NCBI GenBank assembly: GCA_964464695.1
Contig: CAYXKW010000002.1
Span: 28,379-89,935, forward strand
Length of the DNA stretch: 61,557 nucleotides
Direction: 5' to 3'
Source: an uncultured Candidatus Saccharibacteria bacterium
GTDB taxonomy: Bacteria; Patescibacteriota; Minisyncoccia; Phycocordibacterales; UBA5272
Part shown: in pieces, positions 6,331-53,391 of the stretch
How the letters are laid out: each line of letters begins with the position of its first letter
How positions within the stretch are numbered: the stretch's first letter is position 1
The notes under the pieces: generated by a model
The model's input: only the letters and a program-made list of their open reading frames with translations
Database searches by the model: none
What the model was told of the DNA's origin: nothing
Made by a program: the position numbers and the translations under genes

Positions 6331-6389
6331 TAGACTTTAGCTCTTAGCTTGTAGCCAGTAGCTTACATGCAATTCGTTTCAGTGTAAGC
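6331..6389 (+). promoter_or_regulatory. Five heptad-phased TAGNNNN units running into a 7-bp hairpin
   Basis: tagactt tagctct tagcttg tagccag tagctta (6331-6365). Stem gcttaca (6361-6367) pairs with tgtaagc (6383-6389). Confidence 0.5.
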
Positions 6390-15390: not shown

Positions 15391-15741
15391 CTAAAGGCTT
15401 TTTAGGTCGTTCATAACAGCATCCACATCCTCAGTATCATATCGTGGAGTATATGACTGTGACCCCTCTTCTTTACTTCCACCATTAAAAGCTGGACGCC
15501 CTTCAGGCTCATTAATCTTAAGGTTGACTCGTGCATTATTCTTCATTCCAACAACACGGAGTAATGTTCGAAGTGCTTTTGCTGTTGCTCCATCTCGCCC
15601 AATAATTTTACCCATGTCAGATGCATCAACATCGAGTGTAATTAACACACCCATTTCATCAACCCTTCTTTCTACTTTCACCTTCTCTGGATTATCTACT
15701 AAAGCCTCCACAACGTACTGGACAAATTCTTGATCTTTCAT
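15391..15741 (-). CDS. KH-domain RNA-binding protein (YlqC/UPF0109) with ~40-aa acidic C-terminal extension
   Basis: VKVERRVDEMGVLITLDVDASDMGKIIGRDGATAKALRTLLRVVG. Confidence 0.8.
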   Translation of the reverse strand: MKDQEFVQYVVEALVDNPEKVKVERRVDEMGVLITLDVDASDMGKIIGRDGATAKALRTLLRVVGMKNNARVNLKINEPEGRPAFNGGSKEEGSQSYTPRYDTEDVDAVMNDLKSL

Positions 15742-15813
15742 ATATGTAATTGTTTGTATGCAGTAAGTGTATCAATCTATTTCATTAAGATGACTAAAGT
15801 TATTCACAGAAAA

Positions 15814-15922
15814 TAGCACATAGCTTTTAGCTGTTCGCTCTTAGCAACTCAAAAGCGGTGCCTAAGGCACCGCTTTTGAGTTGTGTGTAGCTAAAGGCTA
15901 ACAGCTAACACCTAAAGGCTGT
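15814..15922. promoter_or_regulatory. 15-bp perfect hairpin flanked on both sides by heptad-phased TAGC / GCTA units
   Basis: tagcaca tagcttt tagctgt tcgctct tagcaac (15814-15848). Stem ctcaaaagcggtgcc / ggcaccgcttttgag (15848-15880). CTA recurs at 15891, 15898, 15905 and 15912. Confidence 0.6.
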
Positions 15923-15923
15923 C

Positions 15924-16223
15924 TTATGCCTTTACAGCTTCTTTCTTCTGAGGAGTCTTCTTAGGAAGAACGTTTATCTTCTTTCCAGTAAGAATTCCTT
16001 TTGTAACAAGTAAATTAAATGCAGTAGGAGTAGTTTGTGCTCCAACTGACATCCAATGCTTGATACGATCAGCTTTCGCTTCAAAAATACCAGCCTTTAC
16101 ATTATATGTTCCAACAATCTCAGCAAACTGAGATGTCTTAGCCTTGAGTGTACTTTCGGTAACAATGAGGCGGAAATGTGGGTCGTTCTTGCGTCCTGTA
16201 CGCTGTAATCTGATTTTTAACAT
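15924..16223 (-). CDS. rpsP: 30S ribosomal protein S16
   Basis: MLKIRLQRTGRKNDPHFRLIVTES. Start at ATG complement 16221-16223. Confidence 0.9.
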   Translation of the reverse strand: MLKIRLQRTGRKNDPHFRLIVTESTLKAKTSQFAEIVGTYNVKAGIFEAKADRIKHWMSVGAQTTPTAFNLLVTKGILTGKKINVLPKKTPQKKEAVKA

Positions 16224-16291: not shown

Positions 16292-16717
16292 CTAAGAAGT
16301 CTCACTCTTCCCAATTTCTGCATGTACCTTTTTATGATAAAATTCATCCACTAAAAAATTAACCTTATCGACGAGCTGTTTTCCTGAGTAATCAACCTTT
16401 AAAATAACATCAGTTGCACCATCCTTTAAAGCTCTATTAATGGTATCAACATCTGAAATATTAGAGCACACAACAACAGGAATTGATAATCCTCCTGTTT
16501 CTTTCATTTTTCGAAGAAATCCAAAGCCATCCATTCCAGGCATCATCAAATCAAGCAAGATTACATCAGGAAGTTCTTTAATAACACCATTAACTCCTTC
16601 GAGACCATTTTCCTCAACAACAACGATGTACCCATGCTTTTCAAAACTGTGTTTATATATTTCCTGAAGATCTTTATTGTCTTCAATGATCATTATTTTT
16701 TTCTTTATCTCTGACAT
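16292..16717 (-). CDS. Single-domain response regulator (CheY-like receiver, no output domain)
   Basis: KKIMIIEDNKDL ... DVILLDLMMPGMDGFGFLRKMK ... VVVCSN ... ILKV. Confidence 0.85.
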   Translation of the reverse strand: MSEIKKKIMIIEDNKDLQEIYKHSFEKHGYIVVVEENGLEGVNGVIKELPDVILLDLMMPGMDGFGFLRKMKETGGLSIPVVVCSNISDVDTINRALKDGATDVILKVDYSGKQLVDKVNFLVDEFYHKKVHAEIGKSETS

Positions 16718-16739
16718 ACTGTGTTGTAATAACTTTAAA

Positions 16740-18320
16740 TTATCTGGCTTCTGGGAACTTAATATAAAATTGGGAACCCTTATCTCTTCCTTCTGACTCT
16801 GCCCAAATTTTACCTTTCTGTGCTTCTGTGAATTTCTTTGCCAAAAAGAGACCTAGCCCACTACCTAAAATGTTTACTTTTTGTAAATCTGCTCGTGAGA
16901 ATTCTTTAAACAATGATGGCATCACTTCTGGCTCAATACCGACACCAGTATCTGCTACTTTAATAGTAACATATCCATCTTTACTGGTAACAGAAACATC
17001 AATAGAGCCTTCTGGCGTGTACTTAATTGAGTTATCAATAATATTTATGATAATTTCTTTTAGCTTTGCCTGATCTGCATAAATCATTCTCTTGTGACTT
17101 GTGTCCAGAGCCGTAGTGAGATGTATACCTTTTTGTTCTGCGTGAATCTTAAAGATGGCAAGAATCTCATTAACTGTAATCAAAACGTCGAATTTCGTAG
17201 GAATATACTCCATTTGTCCTAATTCAATTTTTGATTTATCAAGATACTCCGCGAGCAGTGTCGTAACATCATTTCCCGCAATCATAATTTTCTGTAACAA
17301 ATCTTTTACAGGATTACTAATTTCTCCTTTATCGCCATCAAGTAACATTGTGGCATACCCTCGCATAACCGTAATAGGTGTACGAATCTCATGAGTTGCA
17401 AAACTCATCAATTCTGATTTTTGTTCATTTGCAAGTTCAATTTCAAAAGTATTACGAACAAGTTGGATACCGATAACAATAGTTAGTAGAAATACTAAGA
17501 TACGCAACAATAACTGCTCAACCGTTTCTGCAAGAATAAGCTCAATGAGCGAAACAACGCACAAGAAGAACGTAAAGAGCCCTGCGAAAATGTTCTTTAC
17601 GTGGAATAGCTCAACGATATATATTGCGTAGGCAGTAAATACAATAACTGGAAAAATAAAGAGTGCTCCGTATGGTACAAAATCAAAATTCTTAAACCCA
17701 ATTGGAAGAATGAAACTAAAGAGAAGGAGGAGTCCTGCTGTTAGTGACATACCCGTAAACATAAGCATCACTTGCCGACGCTCATCTCCTTTTGTTTCCC
17801 CTATTCTCTTAAAGAGAACCACAATACCCGCAACGAAAAATGAAAGTGTAACCACTCCAGCCAAAATAATTCCCTGGCTTTTTTCAGGACTGATAGCCTC
17901 ATCAGGAGAGATGAAGTTACTAAACTCTCGGAATACAAAAGGTATAAGAAGAAGCGATGAGGTAAAGAATGCGAGTGGCAATAGTACATATCTATGCCAT
18001 GGAGGTAAGACTTTTTGTTCATTTGGGAAAACATACGCAAGCTGAAAGAATGCATATGCATGCCAGATAGACAAGAAAATATGGAAACGAAGAGCGAGCA
18101 GTGCATCAGCTGGATCAGTAAACTTATACAAAAAATAGTTTGAAATACCCCATAAAATGGTAACGTATGAAAAGAAAAGAAAACTCCTGCTAGTGATACT
18201 ATTTCTACTTCTGTAGAGAACTGTCCATGCAAGAACTAGAACTCCAAGAACCGCAATACCGACACCAATCAGGTCAAACTTTACTCCTGAAAGTATTCCG
18301 TCAAAATATGTTGAATCCAT
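16740..18320 (-). CDS. Polytopic sensor histidine kinase (about 8 TM, HisKA + HATPase_c)
   Basis: H-box FATHEIRTPITV, N-box IIDNSIKYT, G-boxes DTGVGI and GSGLGLFLAK. N-terminal 290 aa are all hydrophobic helices. Confidence 0.85.
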   Translation of the reverse strand: MDSTYFDGILSGVKFDLIGVGIAVLGVLVLAWTVLYRSRNSITSRSFLFFSYVTILWGISNYFLYKFTDPADALLALRFHIFLSIWHAYAFFQLAYVFPNEQKVLPPWHRYVLLPLAFFTSSLLLIPFVFREFSNFISPDEAISPEKSQGIILAGVVTLSFFVAGIVVLFKRIGETKGDERRQVMLMFTGMSLTAGLLLLFSFILPIGFKNFDFVPYGALFIFPVIVFTAYAIYIVELFHVKNIFAGLFTFFLCVVSLIELILAETVEQLLLRILVFLLTIVIGIQLVRNTFEIELANEQKSELMSFATHEIRTPITVMRGYATMLLDGDKGEISNPVKDLLQKIMIAGNDVTTLLAEYLDKSKIELGQMEYIPTKFDVLITVNEILAIFKIHAEQKGIHLTTALDTSHKRMIYADQAKLKEIIINIIDNSIKYTPEGSIDVSVTSKDGYVTIKVADTGVGIEPEVMPSLFKEFSRADLQKVNILGSGLGLFLAKKFTEAQKGKIWAESEGRDKGSQFYIKFPEAR

Positions 18321-18405
18321 AATATAATTAAATAATGAAAATAAGTCTAGATCTTCCTAGTACTAAGTATATACGGAATCAAGGAAATGTCGTGTGTGTA
18401 ACTAT

Positions 18406-18816
18406 TTAGTCTGAAATAGGTCTCGTGACATTTTTATGCTTACTTGCGTTCCCTTCCAAGATAAGATTCATCTTTTGAACTAGCTCCTTCCCTGAATAAT
18501 TAACCTTAAGTAATACTGCAGCAGCTCCTGCTTGCAAGGCCTTATCATGAGTCGCTTGATCAGATAAATTAGAGCAAACAACCACCGGGATATTAATACT
18601 AGTATTTTCTTTCATCACACGAAGAAAATCAAAACCATCCATGTTCGGCATCATTACGTCAAGCAATATGATGTCAGGCTTCTTATCTGTTACTTCTGAT
18701 ATTCCAGATAGCCCGTCTCCTTCAATTACTACTTCGTAGCCAGCAGCTTCAAAGTTAATTGTATAAATCTCTTGGAGACTTTTATCATCTTCGATAATCA
18801 TTATTTTCTTTTTCAT
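18406..18816 (-). CDS. Single-domain response regulator (CheY-like receiver, no output domain)
   Basis: KKKIMIIEDDKSL ... DIILLDVMMPNMDGFDFLRVMK ... VVVCSN ... LLKV. Start at ATG complement 18814-18816. Confidence 0.85.
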   Translation of the reverse strand: MKKKIMIIEDDKSLQEIYTINFEAAGYEVVIEGDGLSGISEVTDKKPDIILLDVMMPNMDGFDFLRVMKENTSINIPVVVCSNLSDQATHDKALQAGAAAVLLKVNYSGKELVQKMNLILEGNASKHKNVTRPISD

Positions 18817-18861
18817 ATTTATATAGCGTAAGTATATACCTACCACTGCAATAAAACCACT

Positions 18862-20487
18862 TTAGCGAACAGTCGGCAAAGTGACCGTAAATAATGAACC
18901 TTTCCCTACCCCATCTGAGCTAATGGTAATTAGTCCATGATGAGCTTGGACAATTTCATGCGCAAGATATAGTCCTAGACCTGAACCACCACTATTTAAA
19001 ACCCCTCCTTCACCACGTGAAAATTTGGTGAATAATTTTGCTTTTGTTTCTTTGGTAATACCTATCCCTGAATCCTGTACAGAAAAAATAATCTGTTTAC
19101 TGACTGCGTCTCTGTGTAGCGAAACTTTTACGAAACCTTCTTTCGTATACTTGATACTATTGTCTATAAGATTAAGAAACACTTGTTTTAACTTAACGCC
19201 GTCGACGTTGAGCACAAAAGAATCTGCTTCGTCTAAAGTAGTTTCAAAAGAAAGACCTTTATCCTGTGCTGCGATTTTCATGTCACTCATGAGATCCTTA
19301 ACAACTATTTTAATATCCGTCTCTTCAAAGACATACTTCATGCCTCCTTGTTCAATTTTTGTTACATTCAAGAAATCCTCCACAACAGACGCGAGACCTT
19401 GAGCAGATGTAAATATGTGTCTAACTATTTCATTTTGTTTTGGAGTTAAATCACCAACCACCCCATCAGTAAGCGTTGAAGCATATCCCTTTATCACTGT
19501 AAGTGGGCTACGAAGTTGATGAGAAGCTAGTGAGATAAATTCAGATTTAAGTTTATCAAGAGATTGCAATTTTTCATTTGCTTCTTCAAGATTTTCTGTA
19601 AGGTGTTCCAGTGTTGAAATGTTCTTGATAAATTGAATACTGATAAGTAGCACAAACAAGAAAATACCAACTCGTAGTAATAGCTGTCCTGTATTTTCTG
19701 CAAAAATAACTTCTACAAACGTTGCAATACACAGTGCAAATGCCATGAGTGAAGCACCTAGATTTTGTACTTTAAAAGCCTTATGTTTAAAAATTGCATA
19801 TGCAGTGAAGACTGAAAAAGGTAAAAAAGTGACGGCCCCTAGAGGAATAAACCTTAAATCTTCAAAGACTGCAGGTAAAATAAGATTAAACGTAAACAAC
19901 AACAGAAATGTGATGATTGCACCAACTAAGATAAGTACAAAGGGGGTTTTCTCTCCTTTTTTTGCCTTAATAATTCTTCTAATTAAAAATATGAAACTTG
20001 TAACTATGAGTGAAATCGCAGTGAGAAGTAGTACCACAATCCCCTTTCCAACAATAGGCTCCGGTACCTCATTGACAAGTTGTACACCTGAAAAAACTAA
20101 ATCGCCAAAGAGCGCCCACAATGAAAAGATTGTAATGTAAGGAATGAGAATAAACTTATACCAGGTCGGAAATGTAACTTTTTCTTTTGGGAAAACATAC
20201 AGAAAATTGAAAAAAGAAAATGAATGCCAAAAACCTAGGAAAATTGTTATTTTCCAAGCCTGAAGAAATATATCTGGATCACGTGTCTGCGAACTACTGT
20301 AATTGAAAAAACTCCAAAGAATTGTCACAGAACAGAAAATAATAAACGAAACATTTGTAATACTTTTTGCATTACTAATGTACACAATAAAACCTAGGAG
20401 CCCAATTGCTGCGATTGTAATCCCAACACTTAACAAATCAAGATTACTAAATGATATATTTTGGATTAATTCGATAATTCCTGACAT
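18862..20487 (-). CDS. Polytopic sensor histidine kinase, paralog of 16740-18320
   Basis: H-box LASHQLRSPLTV, N-box LIDNSIKYT, DSGIGI, GGSGLGLYLA. Same multi-TM N-terminal architecture. Confidence 0.85.
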   Translation of the reverse strand: MSGIIELIQNISFSNLDLLSVGITIAAIGLLGFIVYISNAKSITNVSFIIFCSVTILWSFFNYSSSQTRDPDIFLQAWKITIFLGFWHSFSFFNFLYVFPKEKVTFPTWYKFILIPYITIFSLWALFGDLVFSGVQLVNEVPEPIVGKGIVVLLLTAISLIVTSFIFLIRRIIKAKKGEKTPFVLILVGAIITFLLLFTFNLILPAVFEDLRFIPLGAVTFLPFSVFTAYAIFKHKAFKVQNLGASLMAFALCIATFVEVIFAENTGQLLLRVGIFLFVLLISIQFIKNISTLEHLTENLEEANEKLQSLDKLKSEFISLASHQLRSPLTVIKGYASTLTDGVVGDLTPKQNEIVRHIFTSAQGLASVVEDFLNVTKIEQGGMKYVFEETDIKIVVKDLMSDMKIAAQDKGLSFETTLDEADSFVLNVDGVKLKQVFLNLIDNSIKYTKEGFVKVSLHRDAVSKQIIFSVQDSGIGITKETKAKLFTKFSRGEGGVLNSGGSGLGLYLAHEIVQAHHGLITISSDGVGKGSLFTVTLPTVR

Positions 20488-37964: not shown

Positions 37965-38681
37965 ATGAATACAATTAGACATTTTTTCAAAAATTTAAAA
38001 ATAACAACACCTGTAGCAATTTTACTTGCCGCAATTATGCTTTCAGTTTCTCACATTGCATATGCAACAATTATTTCAAAATCTGGCGGACAGAAAACTT
38101 TAGAAGCATTCAATGGAAGATCTGTAGATGAATCTGACTTTGCAACCGGTAAAACTAAAAGTGACGTTATTGTAGTTGAATACTCCGACACAGAATGCCC
38201 TTTCTGTGGCCAAGTTTATCCTGCTATGAAGAAACTTCATGAGGAATATGGCAGTAAAGTTTCTTTTGTGTATCGATATTTTCCACTTACACAAATCCAT
38301 CCGAACGCATTTGATGAAGCTCGTGCACTCTACTGTGTAGGAAAAGTAGCAGGTGCAGAAAAACGAAGAGAGTACATCAATGAAATATTCACCTATAAAA
38401 CAAACAAGCAGAATATGACACTGCCAAAAGGTGGCAAGGAATCTCTTGCAAAAAATATCGGTGTAGACGACAAAGCGCTTGCAGCTTGCATGCAAGGGCC
38501 TGAATCAGGAGATGTGGTGACAGCAAGTACACAAGATGGTATTGGTGCAGGTGTTCAAGGAACCCCTTCAACATTCATCCTTGTGAAGACCAAAAAGGGA
38601 TATGATATAGTTGCCCACATTGACGGAGCTCGCCAGTACGAATACTTTGCATCAGCTGTTGAAGAAGCTCTAGCAAGGTAA
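37965..38681 (+). CDS. DsbA-family thiol:disulfide oxidoreductase, membrane anchored
   Basis: TM anchor, CPFC active site (YSDTECPFCGQVYPAM), GTPSTFIL cis-Pro region. Confidence 0.8.
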   Translation: MNTIRHFFKNLKITTPVAILLAAIMLSVSHIAYATIISKSGGQKTLEAFNGRSVDESDFATGKTKSDVIVVEYSDTECPFCGQVYPAMKKLHEEYGSKVSFVYRYFPLTQIHPNAFDEARALYCVGKVAGAEKRREYINEIFTYKTNKQNMTLPKGGKESLAKNIGVDDKALAACMQGPESGDVVTASTQDGIGAGVQGTPSTFILVKTKKGYDIVAHIDGARQYEYFASAVEEALAR

Positions 38682-52334: not shown

Positions 52335-52404
52335 CAAGAACGACCGCTTCGCGGTCGTTCTTGTGTTAAAGCTAAAATCTAATGGCTACGAACTAATAGC
52401 TACC
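52335..52404 (-). promoter_or_regulatory. Five heptad-phased UAG units (minus strand) directly after the tktC stop, followed by a 12-bp hairpin
   Basis: CTA at 52372, 52379, 52386, 52393 and 52400 (plus strand), with the stop codon at 52405-52407. Hairpin caagaacgaccg / cttcg / cggtcgttcttg (52335-52363). Confidence 0.6.
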
Positions 52405-53391
52405 CTAGTGCAGTGTCTCTCTCACCTTCTGTGCAATATGCTTTGCTGTTAGTCCATACTCTTCGTAGAGCTCTTGTACCTTTCCACTTTGACCGAATCT
52501 GTCGTTCACACCAACTCGTCCAATACGAATCGGATGATGTTCACTTAAATATTCCGCAACAGCGCTTCCAAGACCCCCGGATATTTGATGCTCTTCGACC
52601 GTTACAATAGCGCGTACATCTTTTACTAGTCGAAGCAAGAATGCAGTATCGAGTGGTTTCACTTGTGGCATATTTACTACCATAACCCCAATTCCTTCTT
52701 TCTCTAGTAAGAGCGCAGCTTTTATCGCTTCATAAATAATTGGTCCACACGCAACAATCCCGACGGAATGGGTAAAGGTTCCACCGTATTTATGTTGTGG
52801 CATATACATCATGTATCCTTTACCGTGATTCCAAACATAGTTGTCTGGCAACATCATTGGAGTTTTTTCACGCGTAAGTCGTAGATATGCAGGCTCTTTG
52901 GTTGTTGCAATATGCTCAGTAATAACTTTTGCTTCCACTGCATCACACGGAACAAATACTTGCATGTTAGGAATCATCCGCATAATAGCAATGTCTTCTA
53001 TCGCCTGATGTGTTGCCCCATCTGGCCCAACAGAGATACCAGCGTGCGCTCCCACAACTTTTACTGGCACATCATTATAGGCAATAGTTGTGCGTATCTG
53101 TTCCCAATTTCTACCAGGTGAAAACATTGCGTAGCTCGCCATGAATGGAATATACCCCATAGCTGCCATGCCAGATGCTAGTCCTGACATTGCTTGTTCT
53201 GTAATACCAACTTCAAAAAAACGCTTCGGAAATTTGTCTCTAAAACCATCCATCTTAACACTGTCCGTTAAGTCTGCACACAGCGCAACGACTCTATCAT
53301 CAAGAACTCCCGCCGCAACAAGCCCTTCTCCGAATCCTTCGCGAGTTGCCTTTTGTTCTTCCCCTGCGGTAAATAATGTTTTTCTGAGCAT
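52405..53391 (-). CDS. Transketolase, C-terminal (pyrimidine-binding) subunit
   Basis: ATREGFGEGL ... VGITEQAMSG ... GATHQAIEDIAIMR. Confidence 0.9.
   Translation of the reverse strand: MLRKTLFTAGEEQKATREGFGEGLVAAGVLDDRVVALCADLTDSVKMDGFRDKFPKRFFEVGITEQAMSGLASGMAAMGYIPFMASYAMFSPGRNWEQIRTTIAYNDVPVKVVGAHAGISVGPDGATHQAIEDIAIMRMIPNMQVFVPCDAVEAKVITEHIATTKEPAYLRLTREKTPMMLPDNYVWNHGKGYMMYMPQHKYGGTFTHSVGIVACGPIIYEAIKAALLLEKEGIGVMVVNMPQVKPLDTAFLLRLVKDVRAIVTVEEHQISGGLGSAVAEYLSEHHPIRIGRVGVNDRFGQSGKVQELYEEYGLTAKHIAQKVRETLH

Follow-up and report, generated by a model that had tools for sequence, protein, structure and literature searches.

The ring-shaped RNA-binding attenuation proteins TRAP and HutP of Bacillus recognise phased triplets, (G/U)AG in the case of TRAP and UAG triplets 4 nucleotides (nt) apart in the case of HutP, with as many repeats as there are subunits (11 for TRAP, 3+3 for HutP). 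Avd, the pentameric nucleic-acid-binding cofactor of diversity-generating retroelements, is a homologue of PF05635, a family of Avd-like four-helix bundles also called 23S rRNA intervening-sequence protein or S23p. The PF05635 family is large, its solved structures are pentameric, and no function is known for it save that of its relative Avd in these retroelements. In many bacterial genomes, no long simple repeats are more over-represented than tandem heptamers, which have repeatedly been described without a mechanism or a partner protein: as intergenic convergent arrays of GGGAATC in Xanthomonas, where there are 70-75 convergent array pairs, and of GGGGAYT in Nostoc, both of unknown function (Rehm et al. 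2015, PMC4692102), as TAACTGA repeats in Beggiatoaceae (PMC4679880) and as heptanucleotide elements in Geobacter (PMC2700814). Intervening sequences of 23S rRNA that bear an open reading frame (ORF) are known from Leptospira and, with S23p, from Coxiella burnetii (PMC4990558). Here we analyse a 61,557-nt stretch of DNA (the window, C2:28379-89935) from the genome of an uncultured Candidatus Saccharibacteria bacterium (G000; 841 kb, 38% G+C, 18 contigs), in which the spacer between rpsP, encoding ribosomal protein S16, and a gene for a KH-domain protein carries TAG tracts at a 7-nt phase on both sides of a hairpin. Judging from comparative sequence data, this tract is very probably a gene-less copy of a palindromic intervening-sequence-like element with five-unit arms (Y-A/G-G core), and its arms may, much more tentatively, be pads for a PF05635 pentamer.

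The earlier note on this DNA had described heptad-phased UAG tracts together with a perfect 15-bp hairpin between the two genes, and this description holds in all its sequence statements. On the minus strand, rpsP (15924-16223; an ORF call with orthologues recovered in relatives, its likely start being the ATG that gives MLKIRLQRTGRK) ends with a TAA stop at 15924-15926. Arm 1, the 5' arm of the rpsP transcript (15887-15921, minus strand), begins 2 nt past this stop and reads CAGCCTT TAGGTGT TAGCTGT TAGCCTT TAGCTAC, i.e. five 7-nt units, an outer CAG and four UAG. It is followed by a palindrome at 15846-15882 that resembles an intrinsic terminator on either strand, with an A-tract, a GC stem GCGGTGCC, the loop TTA, GGCACCGC and a T-tract. 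The main hairpin, CTCAAAAGCGGTGCC-TTA-GGCACCGCTTTTGAG, has 15 perfect pairs, or 17 when the flanking AA/TT are counted, and is a predicted intrinsic terminator for rpsP, with the GC-rich stem GCGGTGCC-TTA-GGCACCGC and then TTTTGAGTT, 40 nt past the stop; a simple terminator scan missed it because its T-tract sits within the extended stem. The mirror arm, arm 2 (15807-15848, plus strand), reads CAGAAAA TAGCACA TAGCTTT TAGCTGT TCGCTCT TAGCAAC. The flanks had been thought only partly complementary, which underrates them: arm 2 pairs with arm 1 in the minimum-free-energy fold, and the 122-nt element RNA is predicted to form a single interrupted hairpin (-55.6 kcal/mol, z = -7.4). Rfam gave no match at the locus and, in the window as a whole, only a tRNA.

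Two further copies had been pointed out in the window, at 6331-6389 and 52335-52407, and both are real, with five units each. On the plus strand, TAGACTT TAGCTCT TAGCTTG TAGCCAG TAGCTTA (6331-6365) runs into the hairpin GCTTACA...TGTAAGC; on the minus strand, the units TAGCTAT TAGTTCG TAGCCAT TAGATTT TAGCTTT (52368-52402) accompany the hairpin AAGAACGACCGC-TTC-GCGGTCGTTCTT (52336-52362). The three window arms next to gene ends thus have exactly five units each. Against shuffled sequence the enrichment is clear, with 5 matches to (TAGN4)x3TAG in the window and 0 in 100 shuffles; the whole genome has 88 at period 7 and 0-1 at the other periods from 4 to 12, and TAG is the best-kept in-phase triplet genome-wide. 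The phased-UAG observation is confirmed as real and far above chance.

Chaining in-phase TAG triplets gave ~90 arrays in ~67 intergenic loci of the source genome, and the element beside rpsP is one of these loci, not a dedicated rpsP/KH regulator. The common plan runs from a gene through an outer CAG unit, (TAGnnnn)4, an A-tract/stem/T-tract or other cargo and the mirror arm to the next gene. Although the non-coding share of the genome is 12%, 53 of the 55 arrays with at least four TAG lie outside ORF calls (crude calls, 886 in all); the outer end of an arm is 3-15 nt from the start or end of a coding sequence or from a tRNA, and the TAG strand reads away from the bordering gene in every case. 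With the same crude calls, no preference was found for convergent, tandem or divergent intergenic regions. The unit consensus is T97 A98 G99 [C/A][C/T][T/A][T/G], the core positions being 97-99% kept while the other four vary; where the core is degenerate it reads CAG or TGG, and 17 of 52 arms have CAG as their outermost unit. Within a locus, the arms share their unit flavour and pair better with each other than with arms of other loci (permutation p = 1e-4; 19 paired loci). Gene-less copies at different loci have unrelated centres, and no target duplication is evident. A few arrays are long and perfect, with 8-10 units, and several contigs end in such arrays.

Such arrays might be three-frame stop insulators, in which a TAG every 7 nt provides a stop in each frame and ends stray or frameshifted translation before the terminator. 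Three successive units do cover all frames, several arrays begin with the gene's own TAG stop, a T before TAG gives TAA on the opposite strand, and sister species have TAA-containing 8-nt units at the rpsP-KH spacer. This explanation is nevertheless very improbable, given that half of the arms stand antisense beside gene starts and that CAG and TGG units are tolerated; the GGTATAT and GAATTAG arms of PF05635 genes (see below) and the Xanthomonas GGGAATC unit also count against it as units without a stop. With mirror arms at gene starts and ends alike, any reading of UAG on the sense strand only would cover at most half of the arms.

Counting units in phase by a Y-R-G or N-A-G core, we observed a sharp mode at five in all four data sets. 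Arms with 3, 4, 5 and 6 units numbered 13, 15, 39 and 10 in the source genome, 29, 33, 73 and 13 in G022, which belongs to the same genus, 6, 11, 41 and 6 in G027, from another family (N-A-G core), and 7, 27, 43 and 12 among the arms of PF05635 genes from other phyla. This peak, with its 4- to 6-fold drop at six units, argues against slipped-strand heptamer microsatellites that expand wherever selection permits, i.e. in intergenic DNA up to the gene borders and with no dedicated protein, since slippage would give a falling length distribution. In many bacteria no long simple repeats are more frequent than heptamers, which Mrazek 2007, as summarised in PMC4679880, ascribed to polymerase slippage; the long perfect arrays and a difference in copy number between the source genome and its relative G010 at the rpsP locus would fit such an origin. 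However, the strong conservation of the three core positions contrasts with the variation at the other four, the arms are mirror pairs of matching flavour and the same-genus genome G016 has no arrays, so that slippage appears improbable to us.

The comparison across species was made in 41 related genomes, i.e. the source genome and 40 relatives. The TAG array pattern is found in 32 of them, with 0 to 237 matches per genome, and this entire range is seen within one genus; a reversed-pattern control gave near zero. The four variable unit positions differ by lineage. In the three whole genomes compared, G016 has 0 matches, G022 165 and G027 100, and in G016 the period-7 signal is absent for every triplet. 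In the orthologous spacer between rpsP and the KH gene, G010 matches the source genome in array flavour but not in copy number, and its terminator stem shows a compensatory GT-to-AC change; the arrays of G003 and G008 are of TAGACTG flavour, G007 (L008) and G013 (L015) carry 8-9-nt ATAAAGTN units with a TAA core in place of the TAG heptads, and G015, G016, G019 and G024 have a bare terminator. Loss of the phase in orthologous spacers had been named beforehand as a ground for refutation; the presence, absence or change of unit type between sister species instead indicates a labile feature, not a conserved locus-specific regulator, and refutes a function specific to this locus.

The earlier note had taken the tracts for landing pads of an oligomeric RNA-binding protein that controls a terminator or RNA stability. 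In its narrowest form the proposal is of an antiterminator pad of the HutP/TRAP type that belongs to the rpsP-KH junction alone and has the KH protein for its ligand. There are likenesses: phased (U/G)AG triplets stand beside a terminator, the 4-nt spacing equals that of HutP sites, and the repeat number would match the subunits here too, five in each case, if a PF05635 protein were the ligand. However, the (G/U)AG repeats of TRAP are 2-3 nt apart instead of 4, and the pads described here also lie outside 5' leaders and form mirror pairs at dozens of loci. Both protein families are absent: HutP (PF09021) was found above cut-off in none of the 41 genomes, with a positive B. subtilis control, and TRAP (PF02081) in none of the 41. 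The KH protein occurs in 37 of 41 genomes irrespective of arrays, including, with its tail, the array-free G016 (rho 0.12 with array count). Together with the ~67 loci of the same plan and the lack of conservation at the orthologous spacer, these results already contradict the junction-specific antiterminator, which has next to no probability left. What stands of the landing-pad proposal is its general part, favoured by the 7-nt phase, the YAG core and the five-unit mode, while the rpsP/KH-specific role falls. Cold-shock domain proteins, which are absent from the source genome and from 23 of 24 congeners, were ruled out as binders, and a DNA uptake signal was set aside by reasoning, as uptake sequences are fixed, whereas the units here form arrays and vary by locus. 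The pentameric PF05635 protein is a better candidate ligand than HutP, TRAP or the KH protein.

The association of the arms with PF05635 genes is first of all one of position. In G000, G022 and G027, 13 of 14 PF05635 genes lie between convergent short-period arms, the exception (G027 C3 60099) lying between direct repeats. On C1 of G027 the order is (TAGTAAG)5, a PF05635 gene at 145157-145471 and (CTACTAA)6, and on C5 of G022 (TAGACAA)5 is followed by a PF05635 gene. The rpsP locus has no gene between its arms, but the source genome has two such cassettes elsewhere: on C4, five TTRGCTK units, a PF05635 gene at 59067-59417 and, on the opposite strand, CAGCGAT TAGCTGT TAGCCTT TAGCTCT TAGCTAT; and on C5 (37990-38520), a PF05635 gene at 38075-38422 between ATAAAGT-type arms, the flavour found in the rpsP spacer of G007 and G013. 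Since the arms enclose PF05635 genes, the gene takes the position that is held by the terminator at the rpsP locus. Other PF05635 genes have arms of GGTATAT or GAATTAG units. When G027 was searched without the TAG anchor, 77 period-7 tracts were found, and the three units most frequent among them are those that make up the arms of three resident PF05635 genes.

The same arrangement extends to other phyla. When species genomes were scanned with five of these proteins, 596 relatives came to light, of which the best 80, from many phyla, were taken and 76 loci were usable; these are the closest relatives of the source-genome copies and not a random sample of PF05635. In-phase trinucleotide chains of period 7 and at least three copies are present in 72% of the 120-nt gene flanks at these 76 loci, and chains of at least four in 51%, against 7% and 3% in distal control segments 280-400 nt away; periods 5, 6 and 8-11 showed no enrichment in the flanks. 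At least one arm was seen at 62 of the 76 loci and both arms at 47, with inward-reading cores that are mostly AGC, AGT, TAG or AGG. The upstream arm is slightly better kept than the downstream one (4.2 vs 3.6 exact cores, p = 0.04), which we take as a weak hint towards a reading at the RNA level. Structures matched by PF05635 proteins are 2GSC (X. campestris XCC0516, E = 1e-34) and 2RLD, both of which have five chains in the deposited entry, and the PF05635 protein is a homopentamer (PMC4990558). Furthermore, GGGAATC repeat 15 of X. campestris falls on the annotated XCC0516 start, six bases away from XCC0517 (Rehm et al. supplementary table, PMC4692102). As XCC0516 is the PF05635 protein solved as 2GSC, a published heptamer array sits on a PF05635 gene; our literature search found no paper joining PF05635 family names with heptamer or tandem-repeat terms.

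These data allow the rpsP element to be placed among the known systems. Like the ORF-bearing intervening sequences of 23S rRNA, it has inverted arms that pair into a long stem, a full form with a PF05635 gene in the loop and a sporadic distribution among relatives, and RNase III, the known processing enzyme there, is encoded in the source genome (rnc). In contrast to them, the rpsP copy stands between protein genes, has no ORF, has a 37-nt terminator hairpin as its loop and has arms made of five heptads. With the Xanthomonas and Nostoc arrays it shares tandem 7-nt intergenic units within tens of bases of ORF ends, on the sense strand past stops and antisense before starts, i.e. with a polarity away from the gene, as well as convergent pairs able to form a stem-loop (the 19 paired loci of the source genome). 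It differs in its TAG core, which is not G-rich, so that no quadruplex is expected; and the published papers on heptamer arrays name no gene family, whereas arrays of the type seen here track PF05635. Avd has the same pentameric four-helix-bundle fold as PF05635 but works with a reverse transcriptase, and the armed PF05635 genes have none adjoining.

The association is also one of abundance. Among the 886 ORF calls of the source genome, 28 have relatives in G022 and G027 and none in G016, including two PF05635 genes, one bAvd-like gene, DinB and a Y1 transposase resembling the REP-associated tyrosine transposases (RAYT) of repetitive extragenic palindromic (REP) elements. Three of these 28 candidates, RAYT, PF05635 and DinB, were profiled over all 41 genomes. 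Array count rises with PF05635 copy number (rho 0.76, p = 6e-9; within the genus, rho 0.82), in correlations uncorrected for shared ancestry; the corresponding values are 0.25 for RAYT, 0.12 for DinB and 0.12 for the KH protein. Array matches number 0-21 per genome (median 3) where PF05635 is lacking and reach 237 (median 33.5) where it is present. The array-free G016 has no PF05635 gene.

Two of the other candidates could be discarded on the same data. REP elements and bacterial interspersed mosaic elements likewise consist of palindromic repeats that lie between genes, near their ends, are often paired in inverted orientation and have a 5' GTAG-like motif, and a RAYT-like gene exists in the source genome. 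However, REPs are not heptad arrays, and the arrays do not follow the presence of RAYT: there are 237 matches in G018, which has no RAYT, and 0 in G040, which has five RAYT copies. The correlation with DinB, a Y-family polymerase that could have driven slippage, is likewise too low for that role.

The reading that we favour starts from the exchange of cargo between facing arms, which is the terminator at the rpsP locus and a PF05635 gene at two other sites of the source genome and in most of the relatives sampled from other phyla. The five phased cores of one arm would form the pad on which a single PF05635 pentamer sits, each subunit taking one core and 7 nt, with a geometry like that of the TRAP 11-mer and the HutP hexamer on their phased triplets; the pad could be read as RNA, single-stranded DNA or duplex DNA. 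A transcript ending at the terminator would carry the 5' arm (YAGN4)x5 alone, single-stranded, upstream of the hairpin and free for binding. A read-through transcript would carry both arms and could form a ~45-bp interrupted duplex, a stem of the RNase III type as in rRNA intervening sequences. As the arm would be free in one case and paired in the other, protein binding and arm-arm pairing would compete, and at dozens of gene boundaries this competition might determine how stable 3' ends are or how they are processed. That a PF05635 pentamer binds the arms at all is a tentative proposal, and we hold it with some doubt. The statement as a whole, i.e. a gene-less intervening-sequence-like element with arms serving as pentamer pads and a competition mechanism, is a serious candidate, though we would stop just short of calling it probable. 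We consider it rather unlikely, but worth stating, that PF05635 proteins in general are sequence-specific pentameric rings in which, as in TRAP and HutP, every subunit reads a single core of a pad of five heptads, and that each paralogue has its own flavour and, at terminators and gene borders, its own gene-less pads.

Several observations weigh against assigning the arms such a role. Arrays accompany only 19 of 191 intergenic terminator-like hairpins and are not conserved at orthologous sites, and on these grounds any host function of theirs is dispensable. The arms are symmetric and adjoin gene starts as often as gene ends, so that a DNA-level or a purely selfish element fits as well as an RNA pad. 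The five-unit mode could equally be the fixed terminal-repeat length of a mobile element. In addition to the shared ancestry left in the correlation and the non-random choice of the cross-phylum loci, the genome tallies cover TAG-type arrays only, and each armed gene contributes a few matches itself. G023, G024, G029 and G036 have 14-21 array matches yet no PF05635 match, and G040 has two PF05635 genes and zero TAG arrays.

The main rival is a purely selfish mobile element resembling a miniature inverted-repeat transposable element (MITE) or an intervening sequence, with the arms as terminal inverted repeats for propagation, gene-less copies that are non-autonomous and an incidental effect on rpsP; it is compatible with most of the data and also with protein binding to the arms. 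In line with it, presence and unit type vary between sister species at the rpsP-KH spacer, array abundance spans its full range within one genus, the outermost CAG/CTG unit suggests defined ends, contigs break at long perfect arrays and a PF05635 gene-bearing form of matching flavour exists. Intervening sequences of rRNA have themselves been regarded as selfish (PMC4990558), which adds to this case. Yet no transposase or recombinase accompanies the arrays, the RAYT-like gene does not track them, no target duplication was seen, and the gene-less centres are unrelated terminators instead of deletion derivatives of one master copy. A MITE in the strict sense was rejected on these last two points, in spite of its inverted arms, and a purely selfish origin is in our view unlikely, although less so than the other rivals.

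The symmetry of the arms with respect to gene direction, their outer ends adjoining coding-sequence starts, coding-sequence ends or tRNAs alike, would also suit arrays read as duplex DNA by a small repeat-binding protein and serving as boundary or roadblock sites at gene ends. A 7-bp phase has a precedent in duplex DNA, the ribbon-helix-helix omega repressors of inc18 plasmids, which bind 7-bp heptad arrays. No candidate protein was identified in our screen, which covered ORFs of at least 70 amino acids, the observed association is with PF05635, which is not a known DNA-binding fold, and convergent orientation and arm pairing are needs of an RNA or single-strand structure. This explanation, too, is improbable.

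If the results hold, the puzzle of the heptamers and that of PF05635 would become one testable hypothesis, based on gene-less arrays that rise and fall with PF05635 number, on a flavour that they share with the arms of resident PF05635 genes and on five units per arm. Were PF05635 proteins in general such pad-reading rings, which we rate as rather unlikely, a single relationship would cover the heptamers of Xanthomonas, cyanobacteria, Beggiatoaceae, Geobacter and Patescibacteria, as well as where Avd comes from and why rRNA intervening sequences have their arms. In the organism studied here, about a tenth of the terminators would have either an optional, rapidly evolving level of control over 3' ends or a selfish passenger.

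Some observations concern the relatives of PF05635 and the genomes compared. A divergent PF05635 gene adjoins rnc in three congeners (G007 C19 8667-9480, G011 C26 5994-6878 and G013 C27 3630-4522), which may reflect a single ancestral event. The bAvd-like gene of the source genome (PF22296, C4 1400-1789) has an ORF resembling a reverse transcriptase to its right and no heptad arms, and the pair is a probable diversity-generating retroelement. In G016, AAA/TTT recurs at an 11-nt phase (58 instances, 4 in-phase copies), far above other periods, which may be A-tract phasing or another repeat family. G040 has 7 matches to the reversed control (GAT phased at 7) and may carry arrays of another core.

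Around the element, the KH-domain gene (YlqC/KhpA-like; 15391-15741, minus strand) lies outside it and encodes a genus-specific C-terminal tail of ~35 residues, other families of the order mostly matching only residues 2-88. Upstream of this gene is a block read as a putative promoter (15766-15807, minus strand), composed of GTGAATAACT (15798-15807) and TTGATACACT (15766-15775) and retained at this position by most congeners, whether they have arrays or not; since this pair is conserved upstream of the KH gene, the KH-trmD genes are probably transcribed separately from rpsP. On the other side, beside rpsP, two sensor kinases and two response regulators are clustered at 16292-20487 of the window (C2 44670-48865), with relatives in G022 and G027 and none in G016.

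Finally, two kinds of sequence recur beside or between arms outside the window. A GC-rich repeat of ~60-100 nt (ctcgagacggctcggccgcgaagatgtcc...) adjoins the longest perfect arrays, (TAGCCTT)8 and (TAGACTG)10, at C1 42200-42300, C9 9990-10072, C13 22290-22358 and C3 65340-65420 (L197-L200); Rfam gave no match for it. A 45-nt block, cgtggaaaaaaata.c.taatatggtagtatttcaacacagcaa, is the cargo common to two arm pairs, at C2 23400-23470 and C7 8560-8620 (L201, L202); it resembles a promoter or a small RNA gene, and the C7 copy is followed by a tRNA.

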